From positions 1,551-65,550 of the forward strand of contig JAQTUZ010000001.1 of the NCBI GenBank assembly GCA_028707065.1: a DNA stretch of 64,000 bases. The letters are read 5' to 3'. Shown in pieces: positions 2,571-62,940 of this stretch (position 1 is the first letter of the stretch; each line of letters opens with the position of its first letter). Both the position numbers and the translations under genes were made by a program. Below the pieces are notes generated by a model. It did not search any database. It was given only the letters and a program-made list of their open reading frames with translations, and was not told the origin of the DNA. The DNA is from Patescibacteria group bacterium (GTDB taxonomy: Bacteria; Patescibacteriota; Patescibacteriia; Patescibacteriales; WJLG01).

Positions 2571-4025
2571 ATGACTTTAAAAAAATCTGCAAAAATTGGC
2601 GGCAACAAAGCAAGACCTGGAAAAAATTCCACTTTAAACTGCCAACCGGATAATCTTAGCCGCGGATCGGTTAAAATGGGTTTGATGCTTGCTCTCGTGA
2701 TCATCGCCGTCGTTTTGGCGTTCGCGGCCGCGGCTTATTATCTGTATCCGCAGTTAGCCGGCATTAAAAAACCGGCGGCGGAAAAAAATGCCGCCACCTC
2801 GACTCCGGTCACCATCACCTATATCTCCAATCAGCCTCTGGTCGATCCTACCGACGCGGCAATCATTAACCTGGATAATATTATCGCCGATTTCACCAAA
2901 CAAACCGGCATCAAAGTCAACCGGATCAAGCCGCCGCAAGCGGTGGAAAATTATTCCGACATCAGCATCTATTTGCGGGATATTCTCCGCTCGGATCAGT
3001 CCAAGTTCGACGTCACGATGGTTGATGGCCCGTGGACCGGCATGTTCGCGCCTTATATGCTTGAGCTTACTCCGTATTTTAAAAATCGGCTGACGGAATT
3101 TTTTCCTGAATTGATCGCCAACGGCATGGTTGACGGGAAATTGATCGCCATACCGTATTTCCAGGACATGACCGTTTTGTTTTACCGTACCGATCTCTTG
3201 AAAAAATACGGCTATGCCAATCCGCCGCAGACCTGGGATGAATTGGAACAAATGGCCAAAGTGATCCAGACCGGCGAAAGAAAAATCCACGATAATTTTT
3301 GGGGCTATGTCTGGGCGGCCGATGAAAGCGAATCTTTGACTTGCACCGCCCTCGGGCTGCAGGCTTCCTATGGCGGCGGAACCATCATCGATAACGGAGT
3401 GATCACGGTTGACAATCCCCGCACCGCCCAAGCTCTGGAAAAAGCCATTGGCTGGATCGGAACAATTTCTCCGCCCAATATTTTAAAGTCCACCGAAGAC
3501 GACATCATCATGGCCTGGGATATCGGCAACGCGGCCTTTATGCAAAACTGGCCCGATTCTTACCAGATCAGCGAAGAGTCCATAATCAACGGCGAATACC
3601 AAATAACCGCTCTGCCTTCGGGCGGCTTCAAGCATTCCGGAGTCTATGGCGGAGAATATCTGGGCATTGACAAGCGCACGGCGCATCCTCGCGAGGCGGC
3701 GATGTTTTTGCAATATATGACCAGCCCGGAGGTGCAAAAAAAGCGGGCCATGGAAGATGTTTGGTCGCCGGTTCTTCTGGCCTTATATTCCGATCCTGAT
3801 CTGGCCAAAGCGCAGCCGGTCTATAATTACATAAGTTCGGCAATTTTTGCCCAAGGAGTGGAGCGCCCCGGATCGCAGATCAAAAATATCTACGATAGCG
3901 TGGCATCCGCATACTTTACCAATATCCACGCGATCCTGGCCAAAAAGGTCAGCATCAAAAACGGGCTGAAAGAATTGGAAACGGAATTGATCAATCTTAC
4001 CGGCTTGCCGGCGAGCAATGATTAA
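2571..4025 (+). CDS. ABC transporter substrate-binding protein, family 1 (sugar/maltodextrin-type), membrane-anchored
   Basis: 484 aa with an N-terminal TM segment; carries the PYFQDMTVLFYRTDLL and WGY.W motifs typical of SBP family 1. The true start may be the internal Met near 2676. Confidence 0.8.
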   Translation: MTLKKSAKIGGNKARPGKNSTLNCQPDNLSRGSVKMGLMLALVIIAVVLAFAAAAYYLYPQLAGIKKPAAEKNAATSTPVTITYISNQPLVDPTDAAIINLDNIIADFTKQTGIKVNRIKPPQAVENYSDISIYLRDILRSDQSKFDVTMVDGPWTGMFAPYMLELTPYFKNRLTEFFPELIANGMVDGKLIAIPYFQDMTVLFYRTDLLKKYGYANPPQTWDELEQMAKVIQTGERKIHDNFWGYVWAADESESLTCTALGLQASYGGGTIIDNGVITVDNPRTAQALEKAIGWIGTISPPNILKSTEDDIIMAWDIGNAAFMQNWPDSYQISEESIINGEYQITALPSGGFKHSGVYGGEYLGIDKRTAHPREAAMFLQYMTSPEVQKKRAMEDVWSPVLLALYSDPDLAKAQPVYNYISSAIFAQGVERPGSQIKNIYDSVASAYFTNIHAILAKKVSIKNGLKELETELINLTGLPASND

Positions 4026-5460
4026 TTTGCTCCCGAAAAATAAATTAAAATATTCAATCAAGAAAATCATGAACAACAAAATAAAAAATTTCAATCAGCC
4101 GCCAAGTAAAAAAAATTCGCTTGGGCCGATCATTATCGCGCTGATCATTGTTGTTTTGGCGGCAACCGCTTATTTTCTTTATCCCCAATTATTCGGCCAT
4201 AAAAAATCAGCTCAAGAAAATCATATCACTCCCGCCGCCCCGGTCACCATTACTTATATCTCCAATCAGCCGTTGGTCGATGCCGGCGATGGCGCGGTTA
4301 ATCGCTTAAATAATATTATCAACACCTTCACCAAGCAGACGGGAATTAACGTGGAAAGGGTCATCCCGCCGCAATCGGTCGTAACCTATTCGGACATCGG
4401 CCTGTATTTGAAAGATACTTTGAAATCCGGCCAGTCAGTTTTTGACATAACCATGGTTGATGGCCCCTGGACCGGCATGTTCGCCCCCTATCTGCTTGAT
4501 CTGACGCCATATTTCAAAGATCGGTTAAAAGATTTTTTTCCTGACTTGATCGCCAATGCCACGGTAGACGAAAGATTAGTGGCCATGCCGTATTTTCAAG
4601 ACATGACGGTTTTATTTTACCGCACTGATCTTTTGGAAAAATACGGTTACGAAAATCCGCCGCAAACCTGGGATGAATTGGAGCAAATGGCCAAAGTGAT
4701 CCAATCGGGCGAAAGAAAAACTAATTCCAAATTTTGGGGGTATGTCTGGGCGGCCAACGAAAGCGAATCTTTGACCTGCACCGCGCTCGGGCTGCAAGCT
4801 TCTTATGGCGGCGGCACTATCATTGATAACGGCAAAATAACGGTTAACAATCCCGAGGCAATAAAAGCTTTCACCAAGGCAACCGGCTGGATCGGAACCA
4901 TTTCTCCGGTAAGCGTTTTACAATCATCCGAAAGCGATATTTTGACGACTTGGCAAAATGGCAACGCGGCTTTTATGCAAAGCTGGCCGGGCTCTTTCGC
5001 CATGGGCGCTAATTCCGTGATTAGCGGCGACTACCAAATAACCGCCCTGCCTTCGGGCGGCTTCAAGCATTCCGGAGTCTATGGCGGAGAATATCTGGGC
5101 ATTGATAAGCGCACCGCGCACCCCAAGGAAGCCGCGATGTTTTTACAATATCTTTCCAGCCCGGCCGTGCAAAAAGAGCGAGCCAGGGAAGATCTCTGGT
5201 CGCCGGTTCTTCCGGCCCTGTATTCCGATCCTGATCTGGCCAAAGCGCAGCCGGTCTATGAATTTATCAGTTCGGATATTTTTTCCCAAGGCGTAGCTCG
5301 TCCCGGCTCTCAAGCGGGAAATGTTTACGATCAATTGGCAAACGCTTATTTCTCCGATATCCACGCGATCTTAGCCAAGCAAATCAGCGCCCCGGCCGGA
5401 CTCGCGAAATTGGAATCGCAACTGCATGAAATTACCGGATTGCCGATCGCCACAAAATAA
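4018..5460 (+). CDS. ABC transporter substrate-binding protein, family 1; tandem paralog of the previous gene
   Basis: 480 aa, roughly 65-70% identical to the upstream SBP (tandem duplication); no permease or ATPase genes are adjacent. Confidence 0.8.
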   Translation: MINLLPKNKLKYSIKKIMNNKIKNFNQPPSKKNSLGPIIIALIIVVLAATAYFLYPQLFGHKKSAQENHITPAAPVTITYISNQPLVDAGDGAVNRLNNIINTFTKQTGINVERVIPPQSVVTYSDIGLYLKDTLKSGQSVFDITMVDGPWTGMFAPYLLDLTPYFKDRLKDFFPDLIANATVDERLVAMPYFQDMTVLFYRTDLLEKYGYENPPQTWDELEQMAKVIQSGERKTNSKFWGYVWAANESESLTCTALGLQASYGGGTIIDNGKITVNNPEAIKAFTKATGWIGTISPVSVLQSSESDILTTWQNGNAAFMQSWPGSFAMGANSVISGDYQITALPSGGFKHSGVYGGEYLGIDKRTAHPKEAAMFLQYLSSPAVQKERAREDLWSPVLPALYSDPDLAKAQPVYEFISSDIFSQGVARPGSQAGNVYDQLANAYFSDIHAILAKQISAPAGLAKLESQLHEITGLPIATK

Positions 5461-12151: not shown

Positions 12152-12299
12152 GATTTTATTTCGGTTATCGTAAAAAGATCACCTGTTCAGTAAACAAATT
12201 TGTATAAAATAGATCCTTCTCCGCCCGGGGCGGATCAGGATGACAAAAAACTGGAAAGCGCAACAACTAAGTACCTAATCAACTAATTGACTAATAGAC

Positions 12300-14303: not shown

Positions 14304-14367
14304 AAGTTAAAAATCAGAAATTCTAAACTAGAAATCCTAACACGCCCCGTCTCGCGCTCTAGAGCCA

Positions 14368-14383
14368 CCCCCCCCCCCCCCCC
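14368..14383. repeat. Homopolymeric C16 tract (simple sequence repeat) ~65 bp upstream of the OppA-like start codon
   Basis: 16 consecutive C read directly from the sequence. It is embedded in a ~60-bp motif (C-tract-CGCATCGCT..GCTTT.CGGG.CAGGCAAG.GGGGA) that recurs at 38770..38820 with a shorter C-run. Confidence 0.85.
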
Positions 14384-14579
14384 GCGCATCGCTTCGCTTT
14401 GCGGGACAGGCAAGCGGGGACTAAATTCGAAATTCTAAGCACAAAATTCAAAACAACTCCTAATAAAAAACATAAAATCTAGAACTGTAGTTGTTTCGGA
14501 TTTCGGATTTTGTGCTTCGGATTTGTAAACCCCTTAGTCAAATCTAATTCTGGGCTTGAAGATTAAAAATGAAAAAAAA

Positions 14580-14792: not shown

Positions 14793-14864
14793 AAAACGGA
14801 AATTGGAAATTTGAAATTAGAAATTTGAAGACAAAAAACTTTATACAAAATATTTCCGGCAGAA

Positions 14865-15551: not shown

Positions 15552-15662
15552 TATAATCCGAATACTACAAATTATATCCGAATACTACGAACTCCACGAA
15601 CCGAACAAATTTTCGTTAAAATGTTCGTGGTATTCGGATATTTCGTAGGTTCGGATTATAAA
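15552..15662. mobile_element. Repeat family 3, copy A: ~110-bp MITE-like element with terminal inverted repeats (ATAATCCGAATACTAC ... GTAGGTTCGGATTAT) and internal CGAATACTACGAAC/GTTCGTGGTATTCG arms
   Basis: Sits between infC and rpmI and ends 7 nt from the rpmI start codon; related copies at 23878..23979, 42369..42493, 48414..48536 and 49058..49112. Confidence 0.75.
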
Positions 15663-15707
15663 TTTCTGTTGAATATAAAAATCAGGCGGTAGGCCTGAAG
15701 AAGGCGA

Positions 15708-32152: not shown

Positions 32153-32313
32153 ACATCCTCCTTTGCCGCCTCATTGCCAAAATCCGCCCAAAGCGGACCG
32201 GCGCCGACTTAGCATTGGTTAAGGTTGAAAAAGTGCCTTTTTGCGGTCATTTAACCGCAAAAAACATAACCCGATATTAGCACAAAATTATTTTCCTGTC
32301 AACCTCACCTCAT

Positions 32314-32494
32314 TTGTCATCCTGAGCGCCGCGCGAAGGATCTATTATAGGAGATGCTTCTAAAAACATCAGCAAACATTAGAACGAACAAGTAAAAAAT
32401 ATCATCGATAAAAAAATTGGCAGTAGTAATTCAAGTTTTGCCTAGAATAGATCCTTCGTCGTCAGCCGAGGCGGCCTCCTCCTCAGGATGACAA
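32314..32494. mobile_element. Repeat family 4, copy 1: 181-bp MITE-like element with ~30-bp TIRs (TTGTCATCCTGAGCGCCGCGCGAAGGATCTATT / AATAGATCCTTCG..CTCAGGATGACAA)
   Basis: Near-perfect terminal inverted repeats with an AT-rich core; lies immediately downstream of the recQ stop. Confidence 0.8.
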
Positions 32495-32508: not shown

Positions 32509-34755
32509 CTACTTGTTACCTGATACCTGTTTGAATTTCGCCCGCGCAATTTTAATTTCTTCCCAAGAATAATCATCGCCAAGTTCGTCTTTGATCGGCG
32601 TCAGTTTTTCAAAGCCGACTTTTTTAATGGCGGCGAAAATCTTGTCCTGTTTTTTAGAACTCACCAATTTATCGATGTCTTTTATCAAGCCTTTTTCAAT
32701 TAAAAATACTAAGTGGTTATAAATCGTTTCAACGGTGAAGCCGCGCGCGCCGGCGATCCCGGCCGGATTGTAATTCTTGTTGAACAATTCCAAAGTTTCC
32801 AATTGCGTCAATTTGGTATTCAAAGTTTTCTTCTCCACCTTTATTTCTCCAAAATCCACCTTTAACACACCCCGGCGCTCCGAGACGTCGCGCCACCCCT
32901 CTCGAGAGGGGACTTTTTTAAAATCTTTTCGTGCGTAGCGATTCCCCTCTGGAGAGGGGTGGCTCGCGCCTCGCGAGACGGGGTGTGTGACGTCCGAAGC
33001 TCCGCCCAAACAATTATCGCACTTGCCGCAGTGTTCAACGTCGTATTCGCCGAAGTAATTCAGAATATATTCCGGACGGCAACTGAAATGATAGACATAA
33101 TCTTCCATCTCGTCTAATTTACTGTAAGCCCGGGCGGCTTTTTCGCGCATCGCCGAAAAATCTATCTTGACTTCGGATCGCGGAACGCGTTTCAAAATTT
33201 GGATTTCCGTACCGCGCTTAGGCGGATTATATTCGACCAGCTCGGCTTTTTTCCAGGCATTAATCGAGCGCACCAAAGCTTCGCGGCCGACTTCGATAGT
33301 TCCGGCCACTTCATCCAGATCAAATTCCCAGCCCTCGAACAACTCGGTGGCAAACCGCGCGTTCAATTTATTCAAGATTTCCACCTGCTTCTTGGCTTGT
33401 TTGGAAACAAAATCCAAAGTCGTCTGATGATTATTGATCATCCTTAAAAATGCCGGCGAAGTTTTTTCGCTCGAGCGGGCGATATAACCTTCTTTTTCCA
33501 GAATTTTCAAACAGGTGCCGACGGCCATGTCCGGGACTTTGTCCGACAAATTTTCCATCAGCTCGGCATAAGTCGTAAAAATCCGGTCGGTTTCATAGTT
33601 AGTCAAAACTTCGTAAATTTCCAGAACTGTTTCCGGCGCCGGGTTATCGCCCTTGATAAAAAATTCCCGCAAGAACCGATCCTTGGGCGCAAAAAATAAA
33701 AGACAAAGCGAAGGCGCGCCATCGCGACCGGCCCGGCCGGCCTCCTGATAATAGGCCTCGATCGTCCCCGGCATATCGTGATGAATCACGAAGCGCACGT
33801 CTTTTTTATCAATCCCTAAGCCGAAAGCGTTGGTGGCAACGATTATTTTAGTTTTGCCTTTCAGAAAATTTTCCTGCGTCCAAGAACGGCTTTCCGGATC
33901 CATCCCGGCGTGATAAAAAACCGCTTCCAAACCGCGCTCTAGTAATACGTCGGTAACTTCTTCAGCTTTGGCGCGCGTGCCGGTGTAAATTATCCCACAG
34001 CCTTCGACGCTTTCGGCCGCGTCAGCGATCAGCGATAATTTTTGCGCGTCCGGCGCTTTGATCACGCCGAATTGCAGATTCGGCCGGGTAAAGCCGGTGA
34101 TTATTTTTTTCACCCCAGTCATATTTAGCTGCTTCACAATATCCTCTTTTACTTCAGGTGTAGCTGTAGCTGTAAGCGCAACTATGGGAGGGTGACCGCA
34201 AAGTTCGATCGCTCTGCCCAATCTCATATAGCTGGGCCGGAAATCATGACCCCATTGCGAAATGCAATGCGCTTCGTCCACTGCGAATAATTTCACTTTC
34301 AACTGAGCAAGCTGTGAAACAAATTCATCATTATAAAATCTTTCCGGTGCGATATATAAAAGTTTATAAAATTCTTTTTTGACCAACTCCAACCTCTCTT
34401 TGGCCTCGTCGGGCGAGATCGAAGAATTGATGAAAGTCGCGGGCACGCCGATCTTATTCATCGAATCAACCTGATCTTTCATCAAGGCGATCAGCGGCGA
34501 AACCACGATTGCCACGCCGTCCAATACCAAAGCCGGCAATTGAAAAATCAAAGACTTGCCGCCGCCGGTCGGCATCACGACTAAAACGTCTTTGCCGTCC
34601 AAGATGGCGTCGATCGCTTCTTCCTGCCCGGGCCTAAATTTATCAAAACCATAATGGATTTTGAGCAATTCGACCGCCTGCTTCTTTTTTTGACTGGCTC
34701 CGGCAGAGTCTCGCGTAGCGGACTCTGCCGTTAAATTCGTATTTTCGGTATTCAT
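32509..34755 (-). CDS. recQ: ATP-dependent DNA helicase RecQ family with in-frame repeat-element insertions
   Basis: Helicase motifs (VVMPTGGGKS, DEAH) and a zinc-binding CGKCDNC. Family-7 elements at 32862..32911 and 32944..32989 and a family-2 hairpin at 34694..34729 are in-frame without stop codons. The true N-terminus is uncertain. Confidence 0.85.
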   Translation of the reverse strand: MNTENTNLTAESATRDSAGASQKKKQAVELLKIHYGFDKFRPGQEEAIDAILDGKDVLVVMPTGGGKSLIFQLPALVLDGVAIVVSPLIALMKDQVDSMNKIGVPATFINSSISPDEAKERLELVKKEFYKLLYIAPERFYNDEFVSQLAQLKVKLFAVDEAHCISQWGHDFRPSYMRLGRAIELCGHPPIVALTATATPEVKEDIVKQLNMTGVKKIITGFTRPNLQFGVIKAPDAQKLSLIADAAESVEGCGIIYTGTRAKAEEVTDVLLERGLEAVFYHAGMDPESRSWTQENFLKGKTKIIVATNAFGLGIDKKDVRFVIHHDMPGTIEAYYQEAGRAGRDGAPSLCLLFFAPKDRFLREFFIKGDNPAPETVLEIYEVLTNYETDRIFTTYAELMENLSDKVPDMAVGTCLKILEKEGYIARSSEKTSPAFLRMINNHQTTLDFVSKQAKKQVEILNKLNARFATELFEGWEFDLDEVAGTIEVGREALVRSINAWKKAELVEYNPPKRGTEIQILKRVPRSEVKIDFSAMREKAARAYSKLDEMEDYVYHFSCRPEYILNYFGEYDVEHCGKCDNCLGGASDVTHPVSRGASHPSPEGNRYARKDFKKVPSREGWRDVSERRGVLKVDFGEIKVEKKTLNTKLTQLETLELFNKNYNPAGIAGARGFTVETIYNHLVFLIEKGLIKDIDKLVSSKKQDKIFAAIKKVGFEKLTPIKDELGDDYSWEEIKIARAKFKQVSGNK
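32862..32989. repeat. Repeat family 7, copies ii and iii (inverted relative to each other) inside recQ coding sequence
   Basis: TTAACACACCCCG..CCACCCCTCTCGAGAGGGGA at 32862..32911 and its reverse-orientation relative at 32944..32989. They encode KKVPSREGWRDVSERRGVLK and DVTHPVSRGASHPSPEGN in the RecQ frame. Confidence 0.8.
34694..34729. repeat. Repeat family 2, copy c (37-bp hairpin) within the annotated recQ N-terminus
   Basis: CTGGCTCCGGCAGAGTCTCGCGTAGCGGACTCTGCC. Confidence 0.8.
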
Positions 34756-34828
34756 CTAATTCATCTTATAAAAAATACCGGCTATGCGCAAGCCGGGAAA
34801 TGTTTCATAAAAATAAGTGGTTCTTGTT

Positions 34829-34980
34829 TTGTCATCCTGCCTGCCCGGCCAGGGAGCGCGTCGCGAAGGATCTATTACACGCGAAGCGCGAACATCGTTG
34901 ACAAAAATTTTTATCGTATTGATATGGGCCTCATGAGTAATAGATCCTTCACTCCGCTCCGCTGCGTTCAGGATGACAAA
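34829..34980. mobile_element. Repeat family 4, copy 2 (152 bp) between recQ and the GIY-YIG gene
   Basis: TIRs TTGTCATCCTG..CGAAGGATCTATTA / TAATAGATCCTTC..CAGGATGACAA; the right TIR supplies the last codons of the GIY-YIG ORF. Confidence 0.8.
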
Positions 34981-35221
34981 AAATTTTTGCCAATTTTAAC
35001 TTTTCCGCTCTGGATAATTTCTTAATTTTACTTTCCGCCTTAGCCGCCGCGGACCGGTTGCGGAATTTTTTGGAGTAAACGATTTTCACCGGCCTTCTGG
35101 CGCGGGTATATTTCGCGCCCTTTTTCGATTCGTTATGCTCCTTAACTCGCCGCGCCAAATCAACCGTGATCCCGGTATATAAAGTCTGATCCGCGCATTT
35201 TAAGATATAAAGATAGTACAT
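34949..35221 (-). CDS. GIY-YIG nuclease domain protein (small, UPF0213-like)
   Basis: YYLYILKC..LYTGIT..L..R..EHN GIY-YIG motif, 90 aa; the C-terminal ~11 aa are encoded by the repeat TIR. Confidence 0.6.
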   Translation of the reverse strand: MYYLYILKCADQTLYTGITVDLARRVKEHNESKKGAKYTRARRPVKIVYSKKFRNRSAAAKAESKIKKLSRAEKLKLAKIFCHPERSGAE

Positions 35222-38820: not shown

Positions 38821-38850
38821 TTAAAAACGTTACGCATTATGAGTTATGAG

Positions 38851-40104
38851 TTATGCGTTACGCGAGGTGGGCAGCGGAAATTTTCCGCAAAGTTTTTTCA
38901 CTTCTTTTTTCAGCTCGGCCAATTTCGTTTCGTCATTTTTATTCATTATCGCCTGGTCGATCCACTCGGCGATTTTCGTCATTTCCGCTTCTTTCATGCC
39001 GCGGGTGGTAATCGCCGGCGTGCCCAGGCGGATCCCGGAAGGATCCATGGGCGAGCGGGGATCATCCGGCACCATATTTTTATTGACCGTGATTCCGGCC
39101 TTATCTAAAGCGATTTGCGCCTCTTTACCGCTGATATTTTTATTGGTGACATCGATCAACAATAAATGATTGTCAGTTTGCCCGAAACAAATACGATAAT
39201 CGCGTTTCTTAAATTCTTTTTCCAAAACTTTGGCGTTCGCCATTATCTGGCGGGCATATTCTTTAAAACTCGGCTCGAGCGCTTCCTTAAAAGCCACAGC
39301 CTTGGCGGCAATATTATTTTCATGCGGGCCGCCCTGAAATCCGGGGAAGACCGACTTGTCGATCGCCTTGGCGAACTTTTCTTTGCACATGATCATGCCG
39401 CCGCGGGGGCCGCGCAAAGTTTTGTGCGTGGTCGTGGTAACAATATCGAGGATCGGCACCGGATTATTCATCGCCCCGCCGGCAATCAGCCCGGCGATGT
39501 GAGCGATGTCAGCCATGGTAATGGCGCCGACTTCATCGGCAATCGCTTGAATTTTTTGATAATCGATTTCGCGCGAATAAGCGCTATAGCCCACCAAAAT
39601 TAATTTCGGTTTATGCTCGATCGCCATTTGGCGGAGATTATCCAGATCGATCACACCCGCGGCGTTCGTCTTATAGCGGACAAAATTAAAAATTTTCGCC
39701 ATATAAGTTACCGGGTGGCCGTGCGTCAGATGTCCGCCATGCGATAAATCCATGCCCAAAATCGTATCGCCCGGTTCAAGCAAGGCAAAATAGACGGCAA
39801 TATTGGCCGGCGCGCCCGAAAGCGGCTGGACATTGACGTGCTCGGCGCCAAAAATTTTCTTGGCCCGCTCGATCGCCAGCGTTTCGACTTCATCGATAAA
39901 TTGGCAGCCGCCATAATAACGCTTGCCGCAATAACCTTCGGAATATTTATTGGTCAGCACCGAGCCGAGCGCTTCCAGCACGGCCGGTGAAACGAAATTT
40001 TCCGATGGGATCATCTCCAGACCCTCTTCCTGCCGCTTGGTTTCTCTGGCCAAGGCCGCGTAAATTTCCTGATCCTCTTTTTTTAAATTTTTATATTTAA
40101 ACAT
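38851..40104 (-). CDS. glyA: Serine hydroxymethyltransferase
   Basis: Full-length SHMT similarity with the PLP-lysine region, 417 aa. Confidence 0.95.
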
Positions 40105-42368: not shown

Positions 42369-42493
42369 ATATAATCTGAATACTACAAATTGTATCCGAA
42401 TTCTACGAACTCTACAAATCGAAAAATTTTCCGTAAAAAACGTTCGTAGTATTCGGTCCGCCAGCTGGCGGATTTCGTAGGTTCGGATTATAT
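42369..42493. mobile_element. Repeat family 3, copy C
   Basis: TIRs ATAATCTGAATACTACAAATT ... TTTCGTAGGTTCGGATTATAT; ends 8 nt upstream of the terC start. Confidence 0.75.
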
Positions 42494-42496
42494 TTT

Positions 42497-42865
42497 TTAT
42501 CGAGCTAAGCTTCCAATATAATATTGTTCCAAGGTCTGCCGGTCGATGTCAAAATTAGGCTGACCGGAATTTTTCTCGTCGGCATCAAAAACGGCGGTGG
42601 CGTCGCGGCCGCAATAAGCCGCGATAGCCGCTTCTTTGTCCGGATTAGGCGCGACATGATCGGTGATGTTGTAAATATTATTATTGACCACCAGCCAGCA
42701 ATCGGTCGACGAATTATGCTCAGCCACGGTCAAGAAGGGAATGCCGGTTTTCACCGCCGGTGCCGGAACGACAACCGATTTTTTCGCGCCGCAAGCGGAA
42801 ACCAAGCAAAGAACAAAGAACAAAGAACAAAGAACAAGAATTTTTCTCTTACTCATAGCTGGCAA
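42497..42865 (-). CDS. Secreted protein with a cytochrome b5-like heme/steroid-binding-like domain
   Basis: Signal peptide and an AEHNSSTDCWLVVNNNIYNITD segment resembling the cyt-b5 fold, though the HPGG motif is absent. Confidence 0.4.
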   Translation of the reverse strand: MPAMSKRKILVLCSLFFVLCLVSACGAKKSVVVPAPAVKTGIPFLTVAEHNSSTDCWLVVNNNIYNITDHVAPNPDKEAAIAAYCGRDATAVFDADEKNSGQPNFDIDRQTLEQYYIGSLAR

Positions 42866-42874
42866 ATTTAAAAA

Positions 42875-43954
42875 TTATTTTAATCGTTTCTGCAACTTTT
42901 TGATCGTTTCGCTGAAACTTTCTTTGAAAAAATTATAAGCTTTGTATTGCGAAGGCCGGCCGACCAATTCGAGAAATCCAAAACCTGACGCTTTCCGATT
43001 GCCAAAATAGCCGGAAACGGCCAGCGGTCCTTCCCAATAATTGATCGTGCCAAAGATCATTTCCTGATTTTTAATCAGCGGCGCGACTCGCAATTTTATT
43101 TTTTTCGCCGGTATTTCAATCAGCCAATTGAGCGGATACTTGGCTTTGGTCTTCGGGCTGGCCCACGCTTTGCCGATCGGCGTGAAAATAACTTCGGTCA
43201 AATGTTCAGTCTTGCCGTTAGGATAAGAAATATCAGCCAAAGTCATTTTTTTATTCTGGCTCGATAACTCGAAACAAACCATTTCCGTATTATCATCCAG
43301 CTGCAGCGAAAACCAATTCCACTCATCTTTAGCATAGGGCGCATTCGCCCATTGGTGATCCATCCAGGATTTGCCCGTCACTTTTATTTTCTGGCCGCCG
43401 ATCTTGATCTCGCCTTCAGTTTTTAAGTTGGTCAACGAATAATAATAGCTGCTCCTTTTACCCAGATCAAGCTGGCCCTGGCCGCCCTCCAAAAGCGGTT
43501 TTTTGGTCGAGGTTAAAATCAAATCAAAATTTTGGGATTTAATTTGATATTTAAACGGCGCGGTTTCCACCATTGCCGAAACAAGATACCCGTCAAGAAA
43601 ATTAGTGTCAATATAATTGACGAACAAAAGCGGCTGGCGAAAACTGTCCCGCGAGATGAGAGAAACATAATCGATCACCGGATAGGATTTTTGTTTTTTG
43701 ATATCCGACAGAATTGAATGCGAAAAATAAGCTTTGGCAAACGGCATTTTTATGAACGGCAAATTGACCTTTTTCGGTTTGGCCTGAAAAAGGCAGTCCA
43801 TAAAAGCATAACGGTTACCCGCCTTGTCTTGGAGGTTGCCGTTCCAATACCACCACTCGATTATCTTGTCGTGCGCGAGCTCGTCTTGCGGAAACTTTAT
43901 CGCGTAACTCATAACGCGTAACGCGTAACGGAAAATCGTAAATCCGATTTTCAA
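42875..43954 (-). CDS. Hypothetical protein (possible AttH/CrtC-like lipocalin-fold hydratase family)
   Basis: 359 aa with a WYWNGNL motif; weak family guess. The N-terminus is encoded through a CGCGTAACGCGTAACG repeat. Confidence 0.35.
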   Translation of the reverse strand: MKIGFTIFRYALRVMSYAIKFPQDELAHDKIIEWWYWNGNLQDKAGNRYAFMDCLFQAKPKKVNLPFIKMPFAKAYFSHSILSDIKKQKSYPVIDYVSLISRDSFRQPLLFVNYIDTNFLDGYLVSAMVETAPFKYQIKSQNFDLILTSTKKPLLEGGQGQLDLGKRSSYYYSLTNLKTEGEIKIGGQKIKVTGKSWMDHQWANAPYAKDEWNWFSLQLDDNTEMVCFELSSQNKKMTLADISYPNGKTEHLTEVIFTPIGKAWASPKTKAKYPLNWLIEIPAKKIKLRVAPLIKNQEMIFGTINYWEGPLAVSGYFGNRKASGFGFLELVGRPSQYKAYNFFKESFSETIKKLQKRLK

Positions 43955-44750: not shown

Positions 44751-46559
44751 TCAATTCTGCCCATTTTTTTTAACCATATATCCTTCTTCAAGGCGATAGC
44801 CGAGCTTTTTATAATAACCGCGCGTGCCGATCCCGGCGATAACCGCAATTTGATTAAAATTATTCTGTCGGGCGATCTTTTCCGCTTCGGCCAAAAGTTT
44901 TCTTCCCAATCCGCCGTGCTGGATTCCCCCCTCCTTTTCAAGGAGGGGTTTGGGGGTGGTTCTCCCGCCGACCGGCACCAGCTCGCCATACACATGCAAC
45001 TCTCTAACTATTGCCGAATTATTTAAAAAAGAATATTTTTCATCCGCTATCTTTTTGTCATCCTGAGCGCCGCGCGAAGGATCTATTGTCCGAGAAATTT
45101 TCAATTTCGCAATAAAAAATTTTGATTGAATAAAATCGGCGTTCTTACAAAATAGATCCTTCGTCAGGGACTCAGGATGACAAAGAAACGGAAGGCGTAA
45201 ACGGCAAAAACCGTAAAGCGTTTTCCCGTCTTGTGAATCAAAAGAAATGAAATATTCCTGTCCGCCCGACGCGGGATATTCTTGAATATTCAATTTCAAC
45301 TTTCCAGCTTTAATAGTTTTATCTTTAACTTCGCGGCAGCGGATGCAGCGGCAGCGCGCGCCTTCCTGCTGCATAACCTGGCGCAGATTAGTGATCGTGT
45401 TTCCCGCTTCGATCGATTCGCCGGGAATATCGCGGATCAATCTGATAATCCGGACATATTCGGGCACTGCTTTTTTGCAATCGATAATTAGCTGACGCAA
45501 AACTTTATCGGAGTACGGGCGATATTTGCCAGCCTTCCACCATCGATAAAGTTTTGAACCCTTAGTCACGACTGTCGGATAAAATTTTATCTGGTCCGGC
45601 TGGAAGCGCTCGTCAGAAAATGATTGCTTGAACATCGCCAGATCTTTTTTAGCCGTCGCGCCGGGCAAGCCCGGCATCAGATGATACGTGACTTTGAACC
45701 CAAAATTTTTCAGCAGTTCGGTCGCGCGGACAATTTCGGCCACGCCGTGACCGCGATTATTTTTCGCCAAAATTTTATCATCGACCGCCTGCACGCCCAA
45801 CTCGACCCGCGTCGCGCCCAGCTCGCGCATTTCGATCAATTCTTTCTCATCAATATAATCGGGCCTCGTCTCCAAAGTAATACCGATAATCTTATATTTT
45901 GCTTTTTCGTTTTTCTTCTGCTCGGAAAATAATTGCTTTTTAGTTTCTTCCAGCTTTAACACACCCCGTCTTGCGCGGCGCAAGCCACCCCTCTCGAGAG
46001 GGGACTTCTTATTTAATGCCCCGTCGCAGTCTCCGCCGCGGGACTGCGACGAAAACTCATTTGCCGCGCGGAAGCATTCTTTGATAAACCAAAATTTATA
46101 AGCGCGGGGCAAGACGCTCCAAGTTCCGCCGATCACGATCAGTTCGATCTTTTCCGGGCGATGGCCATTGATCTCCAAAGCTTCCAAGCGCGTCCGCACC
46201 TGCTCGTACGGATCATATTTATTACGGATCGCCCGCATCACGGCCGGCTCGTTAGACAAATAACTTTTTGGCACGTTTTTTTCCGTGGGGCAAAACGCGC
46301 ACTTGCCCGGACATTTCCAAGGCTTGGTCAAAACCGCCACCGGCGCCACGCCGGAAAGCGTGCGCACGGCGCGCCGCTTTAACAGCCGCGCGAATTTTTC
46401 ATCGAATTTAACCCGGCCGCTTTTTACCAAAAGCAAATACTCCCGCCACAGTTCCGAATGCCGGGGAAGTTCTTCACCTTTTTTGACCAATTTCCGCTTC
46501 AGGGCCATCAATTCTGCGGCGGTTTTTGGTTTTTGCTTAATAATTTCACCGATCATCAT
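44751..46559 (-). CDS. Elp3-family radical SAM/GNAT protein (tRNA wobble-uridine modification homolog) carrying two in-frame repeat-element insertions
   Basis: CPGKCAFCP radical-SAM cysteine cluster. The C-terminal GNAT region (FCRLRLP..VRELHVYG..QHGGLGRKLL.EAEKIAR) resembles Elp3. Element copies at 45055..45183 and 45956..46004 sit in-frame. Confidence 0.75.
   Translation of the reverse strand: MMIGEIIKQKPKTAAELMALKRKLVKKGEELPRHSELWREYLLLVKSGRVKFDEKFARLLKRRAVRTLSGVAPVAVLTKPWKCPGKCAFCPTEKNVPKSYLSNEPAVMRAIRNKYDPYEQVRTRLEALEINGHRPEKIELIVIGGTWSVLPRAYKFWFIKECFRAANEFSSQSRGGDCDGALNKKSPLERGGLRRARRGVLKLEETKKQLFSEQKKNEKAKYKIIGITLETRPDYIDEKELIEMRELGATRVELGVQAVDDKILAKNNRGHGVAEIVRATELLKNFGFKVTYHLMPGLPGATAKKDLAMFKQSFSDERFQPDQIKFYPTVVTKGSKLYRWWKAGKYRPYSDKVLRQLIIDCKKAVPEYVRIIRLIRDIPGESIEAGNTITNLRQVMQQEGARCRCIRCREVKDKTIKAGKLKLNIQEYPASGGQEYFISFDSQDGKTLYGFCRLRLPFLCHPESLTKDLFCKNADFIQSKFFIAKLKISRTIDPSRGAQDDKKIADEKYSFLNNSAIVRELHVYGELVPVGGRTTPKPLLEKEGGIQHGGLGRKLLAEAEKIARQNNFNQIAVIAGIGTRGYYKKLGYRLEEGYMVKKNGQN
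45055..45183. mobile_element. Repeat family 4, copy 3, inserted in-frame in the GNAT domain of the Elp3-like gene
   Basis: TIRs TTGTCATCCTGAGCG.../...CTCAGGATGACAA; translated on the minus strand as LCHPESLTKDLFCKNADFIQSKFFIAKLKISRTIDPSRGAQDDK with no stop. Confidence 0.8.
45956..46004. repeat. Repeat family 7, copy iv, in-frame in the radical-SAM domain of the Elp3-like gene
   Basis: TTAACACACCCCGTCTTGCGCGGCGCAAGCCACCCCTCTCGAGAGGGGA encodes KSPLERGGLRRARRGVLK. Confidence 0.8.
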
Positions 46560-47968: not shown

Positions 47969-48346
47969 ATGTTAGACAAAAAAATCAAAGAAAAGATCAT
48001 CAAAAAGTTTCAGGAACATGCCAACGATACCGGTTCGCCGCAAGTGCAGATCGCCATTTTGACCGAAGAGATCAAACAATTGACCAAGCATTTGCAGGAA
48101 CACCGCAAAGATTTCTCTTCCCGCCGCGGTTTATTGAAGAAAGTCAGTGAACGCCGAAAACTTTTGAAATATCTGCAGAAAGAGAATGAAAAAGCTTTCA
48201 AGGACGTGGCGGAAAAATTAAAGTTGAAGATCGCCAAAAAAATGGAAGACGATAAAGAAAGGGAAGATGAACTGGCTCGCCTGGCCGAAGAAGGCCACGA
48301 GGAAGACCTGTTGAACGAAGCCGAGATCGCCGAAAAAAACGAATAG
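47969..48346 (+). CDS. rpsO: 30S ribosomal protein S15 with an acidic C-terminal extension
   Basis: [16 protein letters not shown]...[25 protein letters not shown] matches S15; an extra ~35-aa Glu/Asp-rich tail follows. Confidence 0.85.
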
Positions 48347-48413
48347 TTTTTATAATATAGGCCCAGCTTTTGGGTCTATATTTGTTAAGAGGCTTTTTAC
48401 AAATTTTCAAGTC

Positions 48414-48536
48414 AGTATATAATGCGAATACTACAAATTGTGCGCGAATACTACGAACGGATTTAACGAATTAAAAATAATTCGATAAATAATTTGCGGT
48501 ATTCGCGAATAATTCGTTGTATTCGCATCATGTCAT
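48414..48536. mobile_element. Repeat family 3, copy D
   Basis: TIRs TAATGCGAATACTACAAATT ... AATTCGTTGTATTCGCATCA; abuts the NYN gene start (6 nt). Confidence 0.75.
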
Positions 48537-49034
48537 ATGATAAAACATAAAGAACAGAGGGTTGGGGTGCTTGTTGATGCCTCCAATATGTATCATTCGG
48601 CGAGAAATCTTTTCGGCGCGCATCTAAATTATAAAGAAGTTTTGGACGTCGCGGTCGCCGGCCGGAAATTGATCCGGGCGATAGCTTACGTGGTCAAAAC
48701 CGAAGGCGAAGAAGAAACGCCGTTTTTTGAAGCTTTGTCGCAGTTGGGTTTTGAAATTAATATGAAAGACTTGCAAATTTTCCCGGGCGGAATGAAAAAA
48801 GCCGACTGGGATGTCGGTCTTTCGGTCGACGCGATCAAGCTGGCGGAAAAATTGGATGTGATTGTTTTGGTTACCGGCGACGGCGACTATCTGCCTTTAG
48901 TTGAATATCTGCAAAACACCAAAGGCTGCCTCGTCGAAGTCCTCGCCTTCCGCAAATCCGCCTCATCCAAACTGATCGAAGCCGCCGATGATTTTATTGA
49001 TTTGAGCGAGAATAAAAAATTCTTGATTCGCTAA
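48537..49034 (+). CDS. NYN-domain (LabA-like/DUF88) putative ribonuclease
   Basis: VGVLVDASNMYHSAR...VLVTGDGDYLPLV conserved acidic residues typical of the NYN/PIN-like fold. Confidence 0.65.
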   Translation: MIKHKEQRVGVLVDASNMYHSARNLFGAHLNYKEVLDVAVAGRKLIRAIAYVVKTEGEEETPFFEALSQLGFEINMKDLQIFPGGMKKADWDVGLSVDAIKLAEKLDVIVLVTGDGDYLPLVEYLQNTKGCLVEVLAFRKSASSKLIEAADDFIDLSENKKFLIR

Positions 49035-49057
49035 TTTTTTATAACCAGCTTGCTCAT

Positions 49058-49112
49058 ATAATGCGAACCTACGAATTGTACGCGAATACTACGAACAGTT
49101 TAACGAAGTTTA
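49058..49112. repeat. Repeat family 3, partial copy E (left-end half)
   Basis: ATAATGCGAACCTACGAATTGTACGCGAATACTACGAAC matches the left ends of copies A to D; no right TIR. Confidence 0.6.
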
Positions 49113-49131
49113 TTCGACTATTAATAAACCT

Positions 49132-49644
49132 ATGAAAAAAATTATTTTCCTTTTCGTTTCCGTTTTATTATTAGCAGGATGTGATTATAAAATTGTCAAA
49201 GAGCAACCAACTCAAAATTTTACAATACCGTCTATCGGCCAAATACAAACGAGCTCTCGGGCAACGCCAGAAACTAATACACAAACTAAGCAAAGTAATT
49301 TAACCTTACAAGCTAAATGTTCAAAAGATGCTGAAAATTTTTTTAATCTACATTGGCGCAAATCCATTCCTACCGGAATGTTAGCCTTAGATTATCAAAA
49401 TCATTACAACAAAACTCTTGATAAATGCTTTATACTAATAATATTCAATTTCAAAACTGACATAGGCGACGGATCTCCGGCGTCATACACAAATGATAAA
49501 TTTTTATATGACGTTTACGAGAATGTTCAATATGGAACAATAGATATTACAGACAAAATTTTACAAAAGTGTGAAGTTTCTAGTAAAAAATGTGTTTCCC
49601 TCGATGATTTTAATAATTTATCCGAATCATACATGAATAATTAA
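49132..49644 (+). CDS. Lipoprotein, hypothetical (AT-rich)
   Basis: Signal peptide with lipobox LLAGC, 170 aa; base composition much more AT-rich than the flanks. Confidence 0.5.
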   Translation: MKKIIFLFVSVLLLAGCDYKIVKEQPTQNFTIPSIGQIQTSSRATPETNTQTKQSNLTLQAKCSKDAENFFNLHWRKSIPTGMLALDYQNHYNKTLDKCFILIIFNFKTDIGDGSPASYTNDKFLYDVYENVQYGTIDITDKILQKCEVSSKKCVSLDDFNNLSESYMNN

Positions 49645-49664
49645 ACCTATCGATGTTTAATACT

Positions 49665-49829
49665 ATGAAAAAGTGTCCACGATGCCATTCGGAAAAAATA
49701 GAAAACTTACACATGGCCATTCTTCGCCGAGATGGTAAACCAACAAAATTTATGGGAGAGGCTGATTTTGTTAATTGTCAATGTGGAAACTGTGGCGAAA
49801 AATTTAAAATTCCTTATAGCGAGCATTGA
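49665..49829 (+). CDS. Small zinc-ribbon protein (CxxC-x31-CxCGNC); not in the supplied ORF track
   Basis: Manual translation gives MKKCPRCHSEKIENLHMAILRRDGKPTKFMGEADFVNCQCGNCGEKFKIPYSEH*. Confidence 0.4.
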   Translation: MKKCPRCHSEKIENLHMAILRRDGKPTKFMGEADFVNCQCGNCGEKFKIPYSEH

Positions 49830-50104
49830 AAAATTTTGGAAATGACGCGCAGCGTAGAGGCCGTGCAAAATTGCGTTGTCCGAAGTCCCGCTTCATTATT
49901 ACAATTTTATAAACGAAGGCGGGCAAGTATAGCAATTTTGCTAGGCTTCATAGCGGAGCGGCCCAAAATTTTTCCTGCGAGCAGTTTTTGCGCCACTTTT
50001 TTAAAAAAGTGGCAAAAGATATTTTAATTAATTTAAATAACGCCTGGTCGCCAAACATGCAGTTCCCAATCGGACTGAAGTTTGTCGGCCAAGCACAAAA
50101 GAAA

Positions 50105-56451: not shown

Positions 56452-57594
56452 TTATTGTTTAATAGGCATAATAATATATAAATATCCTTTTTCACCCAGC
56501 GGCTTGATCAGGCACGGCGTATTGCCGTCAATCACTTCCAGCTTGATCGTTTCTTCGTCGATATTATTCAAGCCGTCCAATAAATATTGATAGTTGATGA
56601 TAATGCCGTTGTCAATGCCGTTGGTTTCAGCTTCAATCTTGACGATATTTTCGCCGGTAGTGCCGGAGGCCGAAGAAACGATCACTTGATTTTTTCCTTC
56701 GGGAAAGTCCAGATTAATATCATTGATGCCGCTTTTGGAAAAAAGCGCCGACGCCTTAATGGCCCTGATCAATTCAAAACGGTTCAGCACGGCCGTGGTT
56801 TTTCCGGCCGCGGGAATAATCTGTTTATAATCGGGATATTGCCCCTCGATCAGGCGAGAAATCAATTCGGTATTATCGACCGCGAATAATATTTGATTGT
56901 CGTTGATGTAAAAATTAATTTCCTTTTTACCCCCCTCGCCCTGGTCCAGGCCGGCCAAAATTCTTAATATTTCCTGAATGGTCCGGGCCGGAACAATGAC
57001 CTTTTGCTCTGGAACGGCCTTGTCTTTCCCCTCGCTACCCTCCTCTTTGATCTCCAATTCTTTTTCCGCCAAGCGATAGCTGTCCGTCGCCGCCAAAACC
57101 AATTTGTTCTGGCCAATCGTCATTAAAACTCCCGACAACTCGATGCGCGATTCACTGTTAGCCGCGGCAAAAACCACCTTGGCCAGCGCGTTCTTCAAGT
57201 CCGCGATCTTGACGGTTTTCTTATTTTTTTTCTCAATTTGCGGAATCAAAGGAAAATCCTCGCTCGCCTCGGTTTTTATTTTTGTCTTGAAATTTTCACA
57301 CTCCACGCGTAAGACCCCGTCTTCCTTGATCAGATCAATTTTTTTATTAGGTAAAAGGTTGATGTAATCGGCAAAAATTTTGGCATCTACCGTAAAACTT
57401 CCTTCTTTTTCCACTTTCCCCCGGATAAAATGAGTAATACCCACTTCCAAATTCGTCGTCATCAGCCGCACACCCTCTTTTTTAACCTCCACTAAAATAT
57501 TATTTAAAATCGGCAAGTTGGCATTTTTGCCGGCCAAGTGGCTGACAATAAATAACCCTTGTTTTAAATTTTCTTTTAGGATCGAGAGGTTCAT
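56452..57594 (-). CDS. dnaN: DNA polymerase III subunit beta (sliding clamp)
   Basis: 380 aa; three-domain clamp similarity; immediately downstream of dnaA. Confidence 0.9.
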   Translation of the reverse strand: MNLSILKENLKQGLFIVSHLAGKNANLPILNNILVEVKKEGVRLMTTNLEVGITHFIRGKVEKEGSFTVDAKIFADYINLLPNKKIDLIKEDGVLRVECENFKTKIKTEASEDFPLIPQIEKKNKKTVKIADLKNALAKVVFAAANSESRIELSGVLMTIGQNKLVLAATDSYRLAEKELEIKEEGSEGKDKAVPEQKVIVPARTIQEILRILAGLDQGEGGKKEINFYINDNQILFAVDNTELISRLIEGQYPDYKQIIPAAGKTTAVLNRFELIRAIKASALFSKSGINDINLDFPEGKNQVIVSSASGTTGENIVKIEAETNGIDNGIIINYQYLLDGLNNIDEETIKLEVIDGNTPCLIKPLGEKGYLYIIMPIKQ

Positions 57595-57840
57595 ATCTTT
57601 TATTAATTTAATATCTTTATTTAATAATAGTAATAAGCGAGTGGATAAGATTGGAAGAAAAAAATTATTGGTTAATATTAAATTGTTTATTCGTATAAAG
57701 CGGTGAATAAGGGTGGGGATGGAGTGTTGAAGGGTTTTAACGGTTTGGGGAAAAGTCCGCTCCGGCGGGACTTATCCCGAAACTGTAAAAAATTATGCGG
57801 TGGTTGTTAACCGTGTTTGGCGGCCTTGTTCACAGCTTGC
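57595..57840. promoter_or_regulatory. Candidate oriC segment in the dnaA-dnaN intergenic region: DnaA-box-like 9-mers plus an AT-rich stretch
   Basis: AGTGGATAA and GGTGAATAA (8/9 and 7/9 matches to TGTGGATAA) with a neighbouring AT-rich run (AAAAAATTATTGGTTAATATTAAATTGTTTATT). Confidence 0.4.
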
Positions 57841-62619: not shown

Positions 62620-62866
62620 CAGGGAAATTAAAAATTACAAATTAAGAATTAAAAATTTAAGGGTTAATGGTTATAACATGTAATTGTCAAGATTAAATTA
62701 CCGGACTTTAGTCCACGATATTGTGTACTAAAGTTAATGGTGATTATAAATATAGGCTAATATTAAATAAAATATATATTAATAGCTAATATTAAACAAG
62801 ATATTACGGTTTTTCAAAAAACAAACAATTTGTAATTTATAATTTTTAATTTATAATTGATTAAGA

Positions 62867-62940
<74 letters not shown>

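Follow-up and report, generated by a model that had tools for sequence, protein, structure and literature searches.

A family of palindromic repeats lies in short spacers just upstream of unrelated genes in a 64,000-nucleotide (nt) stretch of a Patescibacteria genome (GenBank assembly GCA_028707065.1, contig JAQTUZ010000001.1, positions 1,551 to 65,550), here called the window. The family is a real, dispersed, and evolutionarily mobile repeat, with four full copies (c1 to c4), about 105 to 125 bp each, and one half copy in the window. We give about an even chance to the reading that it is a portable promoter/operator cassette, i.e., a nonautonomous, copy-and-paste palindromic repeat similar to the Correia elements of Neisseria. 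The sequences show the family and its anatomy, how it turns over between relatives, where it stands after terminators, and which type of genes lies beside it; promoter activity, the choice of the -10 box, protein binding, and the mechanism of spread are proposed on this basis.

Copies in the window

The copies were found where an earlier annotation of this stretch (the original prediction) had put them, and their limits were refined. The 10-mer CGAATACTAC, allowing at most one mismatch, occurs 15 times in the window versus 1.93 expected, a count reached in 0 of 100 shuffles, and 13 of these occurrences fall within the five copies. The arms of the full copies are 33 to 41 nt long and 85 to 90% complementary, and a repeat finder recovered the family as D4, D8, and I2/I3/I9/I11/I19/I23 (arms of 33 to 64 nt, 85 to 91% complementarity). 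Copies of 105 to 125 nt without an open reading frame (ORF) fit the size, noncoding nature, and terminal inverted repeats of bacterial MITEs (miniature inverted-repeat transposable elements). According to the ORF listing and Pfam, all five occupy intergenic gaps between codirectional genes. In c1, c2, c3, and c4, the ATG lies 7, 9, 8, and 4 nt, respectively, past the terminal ATTATA or ATCATG. The copies and their immediate surroundings are as follows.

15552 to 15662: c1 (c1/c3 subfamily), with the infC terminator on one side and rpmI on the other; upstream gene, IF3 (infC); downstream genes, L35 and then L20
15552 to 15592, + strand: strong arm of c1, TATAAT-C-CGAATACTAC-N10-CGAATACTAC-GAAC
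15623 to 15662: weak arm of c1
15544 to 15542, - strand: ATG of rpmI, 7 nt past the end of the c1 strong arm
15682 to 15698, - strand: infC intrinsic terminator, TCAGGCCTACCGCCTGA and then TTTTTAT
23876 to 23983: c2 (c2/c4 subfamily), occupying the DHH-tig spacer; upstream gene, DHH/DHHA2 protein; downstream gene, trigger factor (tig)
23943 to 23983, read on the - strand: strong arm of c2, with TATAAT
23876 to 23908: weak arm of c2, terminating in CATCATG
23865 to 23863, - strand: ATG of tig, 9 nt past the c2 weak arm; the DHH stop codon is 8 nt from the opposite end
42370 to 42493: c3 (c1/c3 subfamily), occupying the spacer ahead of terC, with a GC mini-hairpin (TCCGCCAGCTGGCGGA) nested in its weak arm; upstream gene, cytochrome b5-like protein; downstream gene, TerC/DUF475
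42361 to 42359, - strand: ATG of terC, 8 nt past the c3 strong arm; the upstream stop codon is 3 nt from the opposite end
42492 to 42487, - strand: distal TATAAT of c3, with TTGGAA 18 nt upstream
48418 to 48531: c4 (c2/c4 subfamily), after the rpsO terminator (about 48355 to 48386) and before the NYN gene; upstream gene, S15 (rpsO); downstream gene, NYN protein
48418 to 48458: strong arm of c4
48499 to 48531: weak arm of c4, ending in GCATCATG; the NYN ATG is at 48537, 4 to 5 nt beyond
48396 to 48423, + strand: sigma-70-like match aimed at NYN, TTTACA (flank)-16-TATAAT (distal end of c4)
49055 to 49112, + strand: half copy, a single arm (TATAAT-G-CGAACCTAC-N-CGAATACTAC-GAAC) together with the left portion of a center (TTTAACGAAGTTTATTCG); upstream gene, NYN protein; downstream gene, a 170-amino-acid (aa) lipoprotein (49132 to 49644, ATG at 49132)

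The idea that the 10-mers are DNA uptake sequences was dropped, since all of them sit in five intergenic elements. A resemblance of some copies to T7-like promoters (TAATACGA...) was dismissed as a coincidence.

Arm anatomy and distribution in Patescibacteria

One genome per species was scanned with the pattern CGAATACTAC-N10-CGAATACTAC; loci from related genomes and metagenomes carry L numbers (e.g., L006 and L120). The scan yielded 39 loci in about 14 species-level metagenome-assembled genomes (MAGs) of Patescibacteria (Falkowbacteria, Paceibacterota, "Parcubacteria," and MAGs taken as mislabeled), with a maximum of 8 matched loci per genome (CAIUCZ01 and CAVVFV01, 8 each). The arm unit reads TATAAT, 1 nt, CGAATACTAC, RAATTnTATs, CGAATACTAC, RAAy, and a full copy comprises an arm, a variable center, and the reverse-complement arm, with the TATAAT boxes at the outer tips. 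The six bases ahead of the first box were T in 28, A in 30, T in 39, A in 37, A in 43, and T in 42 of 44 cases (the 39 loci plus the window copies with a scorable flank). Because the flanks were not part of the search pattern and yet read TATAAT, this hexamer belongs to the conserved unit.

The 10-mer boxes are conserved, whereas the spacers and the center vary. The spacing of the boxes is fixed at 20 bp, and positions 0, 9, 20, and 29 carry CRAAT pentamers. Both the 10-mer and the 20-nt unit are asymmetric and directly repeated rather than palindromic, and CTAC lies within the box. A profile search of the window and related loci found 78 to 84 arms, of which about 24 pairs form full copies and many are genuine singles. 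The shortest center is 8 nt, and the longest exceeds 60 nt. Other repeats occur inside the elements: L019 and L120 contain a GC-rich palindrome, and c3, L025, and L039 have a mini-hairpin within an arm.

A search for a phage origin gave 0 matches in viral contigs, and a link to tRNA genes was not seen, as no copy among 40 loci adjoins one. In the literature collection searched, we found no publication on MITEs or promoter motifs of Patescibacteria.

Turnover at orthologous sites

The synteny comparison put forward with the original prediction revealed filled and empty orthologous sites at DHH-tig, infC-rpmI, terC, and rpsO-NYN. Among relatives with 83 to 92% protein identity, orthologous junctions were empty, held another subfamily, or retained a remnant. 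The closest relative is contig_48026 of ERZ25039473, in which tig and L20 are 92% identical to those of the window.

At DHH-tig, the window has c2, two relatives with 87% identical tig (L122 and L123) have an empty 5-nt spacer (TAA-aaatt-ATG), and the 92% relatives (L120 and L121) have a variant array that consists of GCTAAT/GCGAAT units and has a GC-rich palindrome nested in it. The infC-rpmI junction holds c1 in the window, a full c2/c4-like copy in L127, only a right-half remnant ending in GCATCATatat-ATG in L124, and no element in L125 and L126 (JAQUPS01). In L124 (92% relative), a c1-type copy lies between secG and a solute-binding protein (SBP) gene, about 1 kb from the site of c1 in the window; it has the same orientation as c1 and is 85.6% identical to it. 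The terC gene of L042 lacks the element, its promoter being a plain TGaTATAAT. The rpsO-NYN spacer, which holds c4 in the window, is empty in most of 80 loci (with a terminator only in L095), and it contains a different GC-rich repeat in L041 and a c1/c3-type copy in L043.

The window and L041 share an orthologous half copy after NYN, which in L041 precedes an unrelated small membrane/lipoprotein gene (1798 onward); L040 and L043 lack both the half copy and its downstream gene. The site after NYN looks like a small variable cargo slot bounded by a repeat.

Whole-length identity at nonhomologous sites, center included, was 76 to 89%. Within the window, c2 and c4 are 86% identical and c1 and c3 are 76% identical; between genomes, c4 or c2 is 89% identical to a copy upstream of rplL in CAVVFV01 (L028), and c1 is 87% identical to a copy upstream of atpF in JAQUPS01 (L012). 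Such whole-length likeness at unrelated genes excludes the independent evolution of binding sites and means that sequence was copied between sites. Judged from these alignments, the pattern indicates copy-and-paste turnover of the element, and the earlier description of a MITE-like dispersed element holds.

These data also bear on the possibility that the boxes are operator sites of a conserved global regulator of a translation or housekeeping regulon, gained and lost as ordinary sites with no mobile element involved. We regard this as highly unlikely, although the 10-mers are invariant among variable spacers, the 20-bp spacing and the CRAAT phase are fixed, NYN, rplC, and rpmI recur across genomes, and the neighbor genes have a functional theme in common. 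The 86 to 89% identity found at unrelated genes over the whole element, its center and spacers too, is beyond what de novo site evolution can yield. Boxes of a regulon would be kept at orthologous genes across the clade, but here sites were lost or replaced by another subfamily or unit in relatives with 83 to 92% protein identity, and only 3 of the 80 NYN loci from related metagenomes carry the family.

Position relative to genes and neighbor functions

Across genomes, 23 of 78 arm ends had the ATG of an ORF of at least 60 aa 3 to 9 nt past ATTATA, and none had one at 0 to 2 nt; in the control, 4% of random positions had such an ATG within 0 to 12 nt. The proximity to start codons first noted for the window copies is real and general. 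It was also claimed that the same end always faces the gene, and this did not hold. Judged by the slight internal asymmetry of the element, c1(+), c3(+), c4(+), and c2(-) are oriented alike, such that the strong arm abuts rpmI and terC and the weak arm abuts NYN and tig. Elsewhere, the gene-proximal arm was the stronger one in 7 of 18 full copies from other genomes, and the mean TATAAT match in 18 full copies was equal for proximal and distal arms (5.1 of 6 each).

The neighbor genes encode L35, L3 (twice), S3, S19, S18, L5, L22, L18, L24, L7/L12, ribosome recycling factor (RRF), ThrRS, Asn/AspRS, trigger factor, SecA, RpoD, GyrA, AtpF, ScpA, XerC/D, TerC, and the NYN protein (four genomes). 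By type, eleven ribosomal proteins, RRF, and two aminoacyl-tRNA synthetases were tallied, and translation genes made up about 40% of the neighbors versus about 10% expected (our estimate from typical gene content). The junctions occupied within the S10-spc cluster vary between genomes. Differing subfamilies repeatedly targeted certain genes, with hits in 3 of 5 relatives for rpmI, in 4 of 5 family-positive genomes for NYN, and in 2 of 3 for tig.

Promoter evidence

In the proposed cassette, each arm would consist of a -10-type box (TATAAT read inward, xATTAT read outward) followed by two phased 10-bp CGAATACTAC boxes with a 20-bp period, which are most likely binding sites of one protein, either a regulator or a mobilizing enzyme. 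The element would land in, or replace, the short spacer ahead of a gene in either orientation, and downstream transcription would then begin from an element-borne -10 box. If it began from the distal, inward TATAAT, the element would form the 5' leader, as half copies aimed at the gene require. If it began from the proximal, outward box 3 to 9 nt before the ATG, the mRNA would be leaderless or nearly so, a mode of expression apparently used for part of the genes in this Shine-Dalgarno (SD)-poor lineage.

The strongest pointers to a promoter come from c1 and c4. Both directly follow conserved intrinsic terminators and take up the whole space between terminator and ATG (of rpmI-rplT and NYN, respectively), so the promoter of rpmI-rplT and that of NYN probably lie in the element, assuming little terminator read-through. 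The infC terminator is kept in all five relatives, with or without the element, which runs counter to the earlier view that the element splits an infC-rpmI operon.

In a scan for the sigma-70 consensus, c4 gave TTTACA-16-TATAAT (11 of 12 positions, the best match of its region) and c3 gave TTGGAA-18-TATAAT, both using the distal inward TATAAT. Single arms aimed at the gene (L022 [L24], L031, L006, L023, L041, and window position 49055) have the ATG 2 to 38 nt after the second box and no other candidate -10 box. Single arms in the outward direction lie 5 to 8 nt before gyrA (L008) and before rpsC/S3 and rplE/L5 (L020); for these, the outward box (xATTAT) or the upstream operon must serve. That half copies serve in both orientations argues for a function on DNA rather than in the RNA sequence.

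The four genes downstream of c1 to c4 (rpmI, tig, terC, and NYN) all lack an SD sequence, as the original prediction stated, but this lack is not special to them. In the window, about 10 of 65 genes have an SD core (GGAG, GAGG, or AGGA) upstream, as do 7.7% of the 817 long ORFs found in some 1 Mb of related loci. The NYN gene is without one in practically every one of its 80 orthologous loci, the majority of which contain no element; SD scarcity is therefore a lineage property. In the window and the same 1 Mb, TAnnnT, and also exact TATAAT, peaks 6 to 8 nt before ATG. Cases outside the element include TGATATAAT-N6-ATG at 20691 and TATAAT-N6-ATG at 46559 in the window. Given this peak and such cases, a leaderless start from the proximal tip of the element is plausible. 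The tip hexamers are TATATT-N5-ATG (c1), TATATT-N6-ATG (c3), CATCAT-N5-ATG (c4), and CATCAT-N10-ATG (c2), with several registers possible. Rare SD sequences together with the TAnnnT peak constitute a leaderless-type signature of this Falkowbacteria-related Patescibacteria lineage.

Taken with the TATAAT tips, the terminators before c1 and c4, and the sigma-70 matches of c4 and c3, the suggestion in the original prediction that the element supplies a promoter is plausible as an inference. Several observations weigh against the cassette. No -35 box was enriched outside the arm upstream of the inward TATAAT, and none occurs at the right distance within the arm for the outward box. Conservation of the hexamer fits a textbook -10 box in neither direction (A2 or T6, depending on direction, is only about 69% conserved), and two facing TATAAT boxes would yield convergent transcription. 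Upstream stop codons are as near as start codons (0 to 12 nt at 17 tips), and of 18 stop-element-start cases, the start was nearer in 9 and the stop in 9; the element thus fills the whole spacer, and spare room, where present, is usually a terminator on the stop side. The proximity to ATG could therefore stem from genome compaction alone. Copies resemble one another as closely between species as they do within the window, which does not fit a recent burst in a single genome and leaves the mode of spread unexplained. No flank was visibly duplicated at any filled/empty pair, but the relatives compared are just 72 to 80% identical in DNA, or about 75 to 80% for the DHH-tig and rpsO-NYN comparisons, and boundaries are blurred; the TA at both tips is part of TATAAT/ATTATA. 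No transposase or RAYT (Y1_Tnp) gene was present among the 50 window ORFs, and in the loci examined, no pair of arms encloses a transposase-sized ORF.

Several of these points would also be expected of a purely selfish MITE- or REPIN-like repeat with no role in expression, which would survive in the few noncoding bases of the genome and hence abut both stop and ATG; its TATAAT ends would be transposase or cleavage sites that resemble a -10 box by chance. Besides the equal nearness of stops and starts and the lack of -35 enrichment, the random orientation relative to the gene, the presence/absence and subfamily replacement at orthologous sites, and the nesting of other repeats in L019, L120, and c3 are consistent with such a repeat. 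Nevertheless, we consider it unlikely. At c1 and c4, no space other than that taken up by the element separates the conserved terminator from a gene that is essential or highly expressed, and a promoter probably lies there unless there is read-through. A selfish repeat would also leave unaccounted for the excess of translation genes among the neighbors, the return of different subfamilies to rpmI, NYN, and tig, the sharp limitation of start distances to 3 to 9 nt, and an interspecies whole-length identity as high as that within a genome.

Hairpin and RNA tests

Both strands of the element fold strongly (-44 to -48.5 kcal/mol, z scores of -6 to -10), which raises the possibility that it acts as RNA, with a hairpin of about 45 bp serving RNase III cleavage or protection, stabilization of the upstream cistron (as repetitive extragenic palindromic [REP] sequences do), or a juxtaposition of stop and AUG that keeps translational coupling despite a 110-nt insertion. 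Many copies, c2 and c3 among them, do have the stop codon at one foot of the stem and the start codon at the other, nested inserts are small palindromes that leave the main stem intact (c3), and elements occur within ribosomal protein operons. We nonetheless rate an RNA function as quite unlikely. In an RNAalifold analysis of 10 copies, the covariation term was just -0.21 kcal/mol, and most pairs were invariant. At variable positions, the two arms of one element were no more alike (0.47) than arms of different elements of the same genome (0.57), and the c2/c4 type keeps a conserved A-C mismatch and a G-U pair. By these measures, the sequences give no sign that the hairpin as such is under selection, contrary to the regulator-binding hairpin offered in the original prediction. 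Half copies keep their relation to the gene without any hairpin, and coupling is irrelevant to c1 and c4, which lie downstream of terminators.

At the Rfam gathering score, only tmRNA and tRNAs were found in the window, and the element gave subthreshold matches to generic and plant microRNA hairpins. A structured RNA family was rejected, given the lack of a real Rfam match at gathering or permissive thresholds and of covariation. The motif TACGAAC..GTTCGTA, proposed earlier as a transcription factor site, does not behave as a LexA-type box either: CGAAC-N4-GTTCG (Cheo box) had 2 one-mismatch matches versus 2.5 expected, and the CGAAC and GTTCG halves of the element are 20 to 60 nt apart.

Comparison with known systems

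By analogy, the family appears to be of a kind already known, matching promoter-bearing MITEs such as Correia elements, rather than a new kind of system. Correia elements (CREE/NEMIS, Neisseria) are likewise about 100 to 150 bp long, noncoding, and dispersed, have terminal inverted repeats starting with a TATA-type box, and often lie just upstream of genes. They can carry a promoter at either or both ends, are mobilized, and interact with RNase III (PMC2649163). In the Patescibacteria element, TATAAT is conserved at the tips, with sigma-70-like matches for c4 and c3, and a promoter role is predicted. However, the host phylum differs, the likeness is one of layout and not of compared sequence, the Patescibacteria arms carry two phased 10-bp direct repeats (inverted repeat-direct repeat-like), and the TA target site duplication of Correia elements was not seen.

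REP elements and bacterial interspersed mosaic elements (BIMEs), as well as REPINs, are mobilized by RAYT (Y1) transposases. They resemble our family in forming long hairpins from inverted doublets of a short unit, with singlets as decayed copies, in their intercistronic location in operons, and in having a CTAC/GTAG tetranucleotide in the conserved unit. In contrast, the Patescibacteria units are not themselves palindromes, the elements lie 5' of genes rather than 3' or between convergent genes and have TATAAT ends, and the window ORFs include no Y1_Tnp/RAYT gene.

Putative mobile promoters, reportedly described by Matus-Garcia et al. in 2012, are homologous promoter segments upstream of nonhomologous genes. 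Promoter-bearing MITEs have been reviewed (PMC10969869). Both share with our family a single upstream cassette ahead of unrelated genes, within and across genomes; unlike mobile promoters, the Patescibacteria family is palindromic with internal phased boxes, and its promoter activity is a prediction. Leaderless-mRNA promoters, known in Deinococcus and Mycobacterium (PMC4007540 and PMC4633059), likewise have a -10-like box a few fixed bases before the ATG and no SD sequence, in line with the genome-wide TAnnnT peak at 6 to 8 nt. Here, however, the box is the tip of a repeat, the spacing is wider (3 to 9 nt), and the c2/c4 type ends in CATCAT, not TAnnnT.

Phased short-repeat operators include MetJ metboxes, MraZ boxes, omega-protein heptads, and plasmid iterons. 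As in these arrays, asymmetric boxes occur in helical phase, in direct and inverted order, and overlap a core promoter. In Patescibacteria, in contrast, the whole element and not the boxes alone is copied between sites, and the cognate protein is putative.

Significance for Patescibacteria

Patescibacteria have tiny genomes and few regulators, and to our knowledge, almost nothing is known about transcription and translation initiation in this group, also called the candidate phyla radiation (CPR). A cassette before ribosomal protein, tig, aminoacyl-tRNA synthetase, secA, and rpoD genes would give a handle on their promoters, with candidate transcription start sites, a 10-bp box as bait, and a test of leaderless expression. 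It would also be a marker for microevolution between close MAGs. Even if it were only selfish, it would show where a compact genome can accommodate insertions of 110 bp. Such arrays call for caution in annotation, since gene callers run ORFs through them; in L124 (2196 to 2495), the deposited call for L35 is 99 aa instead of 65 aa, its start having been moved upstream through the repeat array.

A broader reading, which we hold to be quite doubtful, is that the CGAATACTAC element may stand as the most sharply defined example of a broader array feature, not described before, of these SD-poor, ultrasmall bacteria, either read by one lineage-specific DNA-binding factor or forming stems that juxtapose stop and start so as to keep coupling. 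The feature would comprise fast-turnover palindromic or tandem arrays of 7- to 10-nt units placed exactly between a terminator or promoter and the start codon, and also just upstream of tmRNA and tRNA genes, with the same genes (rpmI, tig, NYN, and nusA) bearing different units in close relatives. If true, it would amount to a copy-and-paste cis-regulatory code that coordinates the translation apparatus with very few regulators.

Other arrays and features nearby

Tandem 7-nt arrays (GAATTAA, CAAATTA, AATTTAT, GGAAATT, CAAAGAA, CGCGTAA, and others) lie directly upstream of genes in the window. One stops 7 nt before the 5' end of tmRNA; others end 5 to 8 nt before two tRNA genes or right at ORF starts. 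The array ahead of the tRNA at 62867 spells TTGTAA-16-TATAAT.

21455 to 21487, 20043 to 20079, 62827 to 62858, 62625 to 62657, 14798 to 14829, 14304 to 14335, 42807 to 42837, 43901 to 43930, and 38837 to 38860: 7-nt arrays

The nusA leader (26477 to 26588; L120, 7286 to 7440; L122, 7440 to 7552) has a promoter (TTGACA-17-TAATAT) and a hairpin (caggctagttgttcttcggacaagtagcc) that are kept in three relatives. Between this hairpin and the ATG, the window and L120 carry different palindromic or tandem AT-rich arrays and L122 carries none, which marks the array as a hypervariable 5' untranslated region insertion just before the start codon. At 24918 to 25016, 8-nt units (TAGTTAAT / AACTAATT) form a palindromic array that ends 2 nt before the DHH ATG; its architecture is that of the CGAATACTAC element, but its unit sequence is different.

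A GC-rich palindromic family (CCCCTCTnnGAGAGGGG...CGCGAG.CGGGGTGTGT) occurs at 32943 to 32988, 45959 to 46004, about 21530 to 21570, and about 14340 to 14400. In relatives (L041, 1160 to 1210; L019, 170 to 230; and L120, 9905 to 9952), it is nested in CGAATACTAC-type elements or lies just before the NYN ATG. A further repeat family, TTTGTCATCCTGAGCG...CGAAGGATC, partly in inverted pairs, was found at 32313 to 32354, 34828 to 34884, 45054 to 45096, 45142 to 45184, 12219 to 12250, and 34952 to 34983.

A highly conserved NYN-domain (PIN-like nuclease) gene is flanked by rpsO, whose S15 product has a long E/K-rich tail, and by pnp (window, 47969 to 52369; 80 loci, L040 to L119). In the spacer upstream of it, a hot spot, palindromic arrays with many kinds of unit occur, including TACAAAT, GCGAAT, CACAAAT, and ACGAATT units in L049, L053, L054, L057, L083, L092, L102, and L104.

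With dnaN and dnaA present, the window spans the origin region. It also contains an HNH endonuclease gene between tRNAs and tmRNA, a run of 16 C, and two tandem paralogous SBP genes.

56452 to 59214: dnaN/dnaA
20221 to 20691: HNH gene
14368 to 14383: run of 16 C
2571 to 5460: SBP genes

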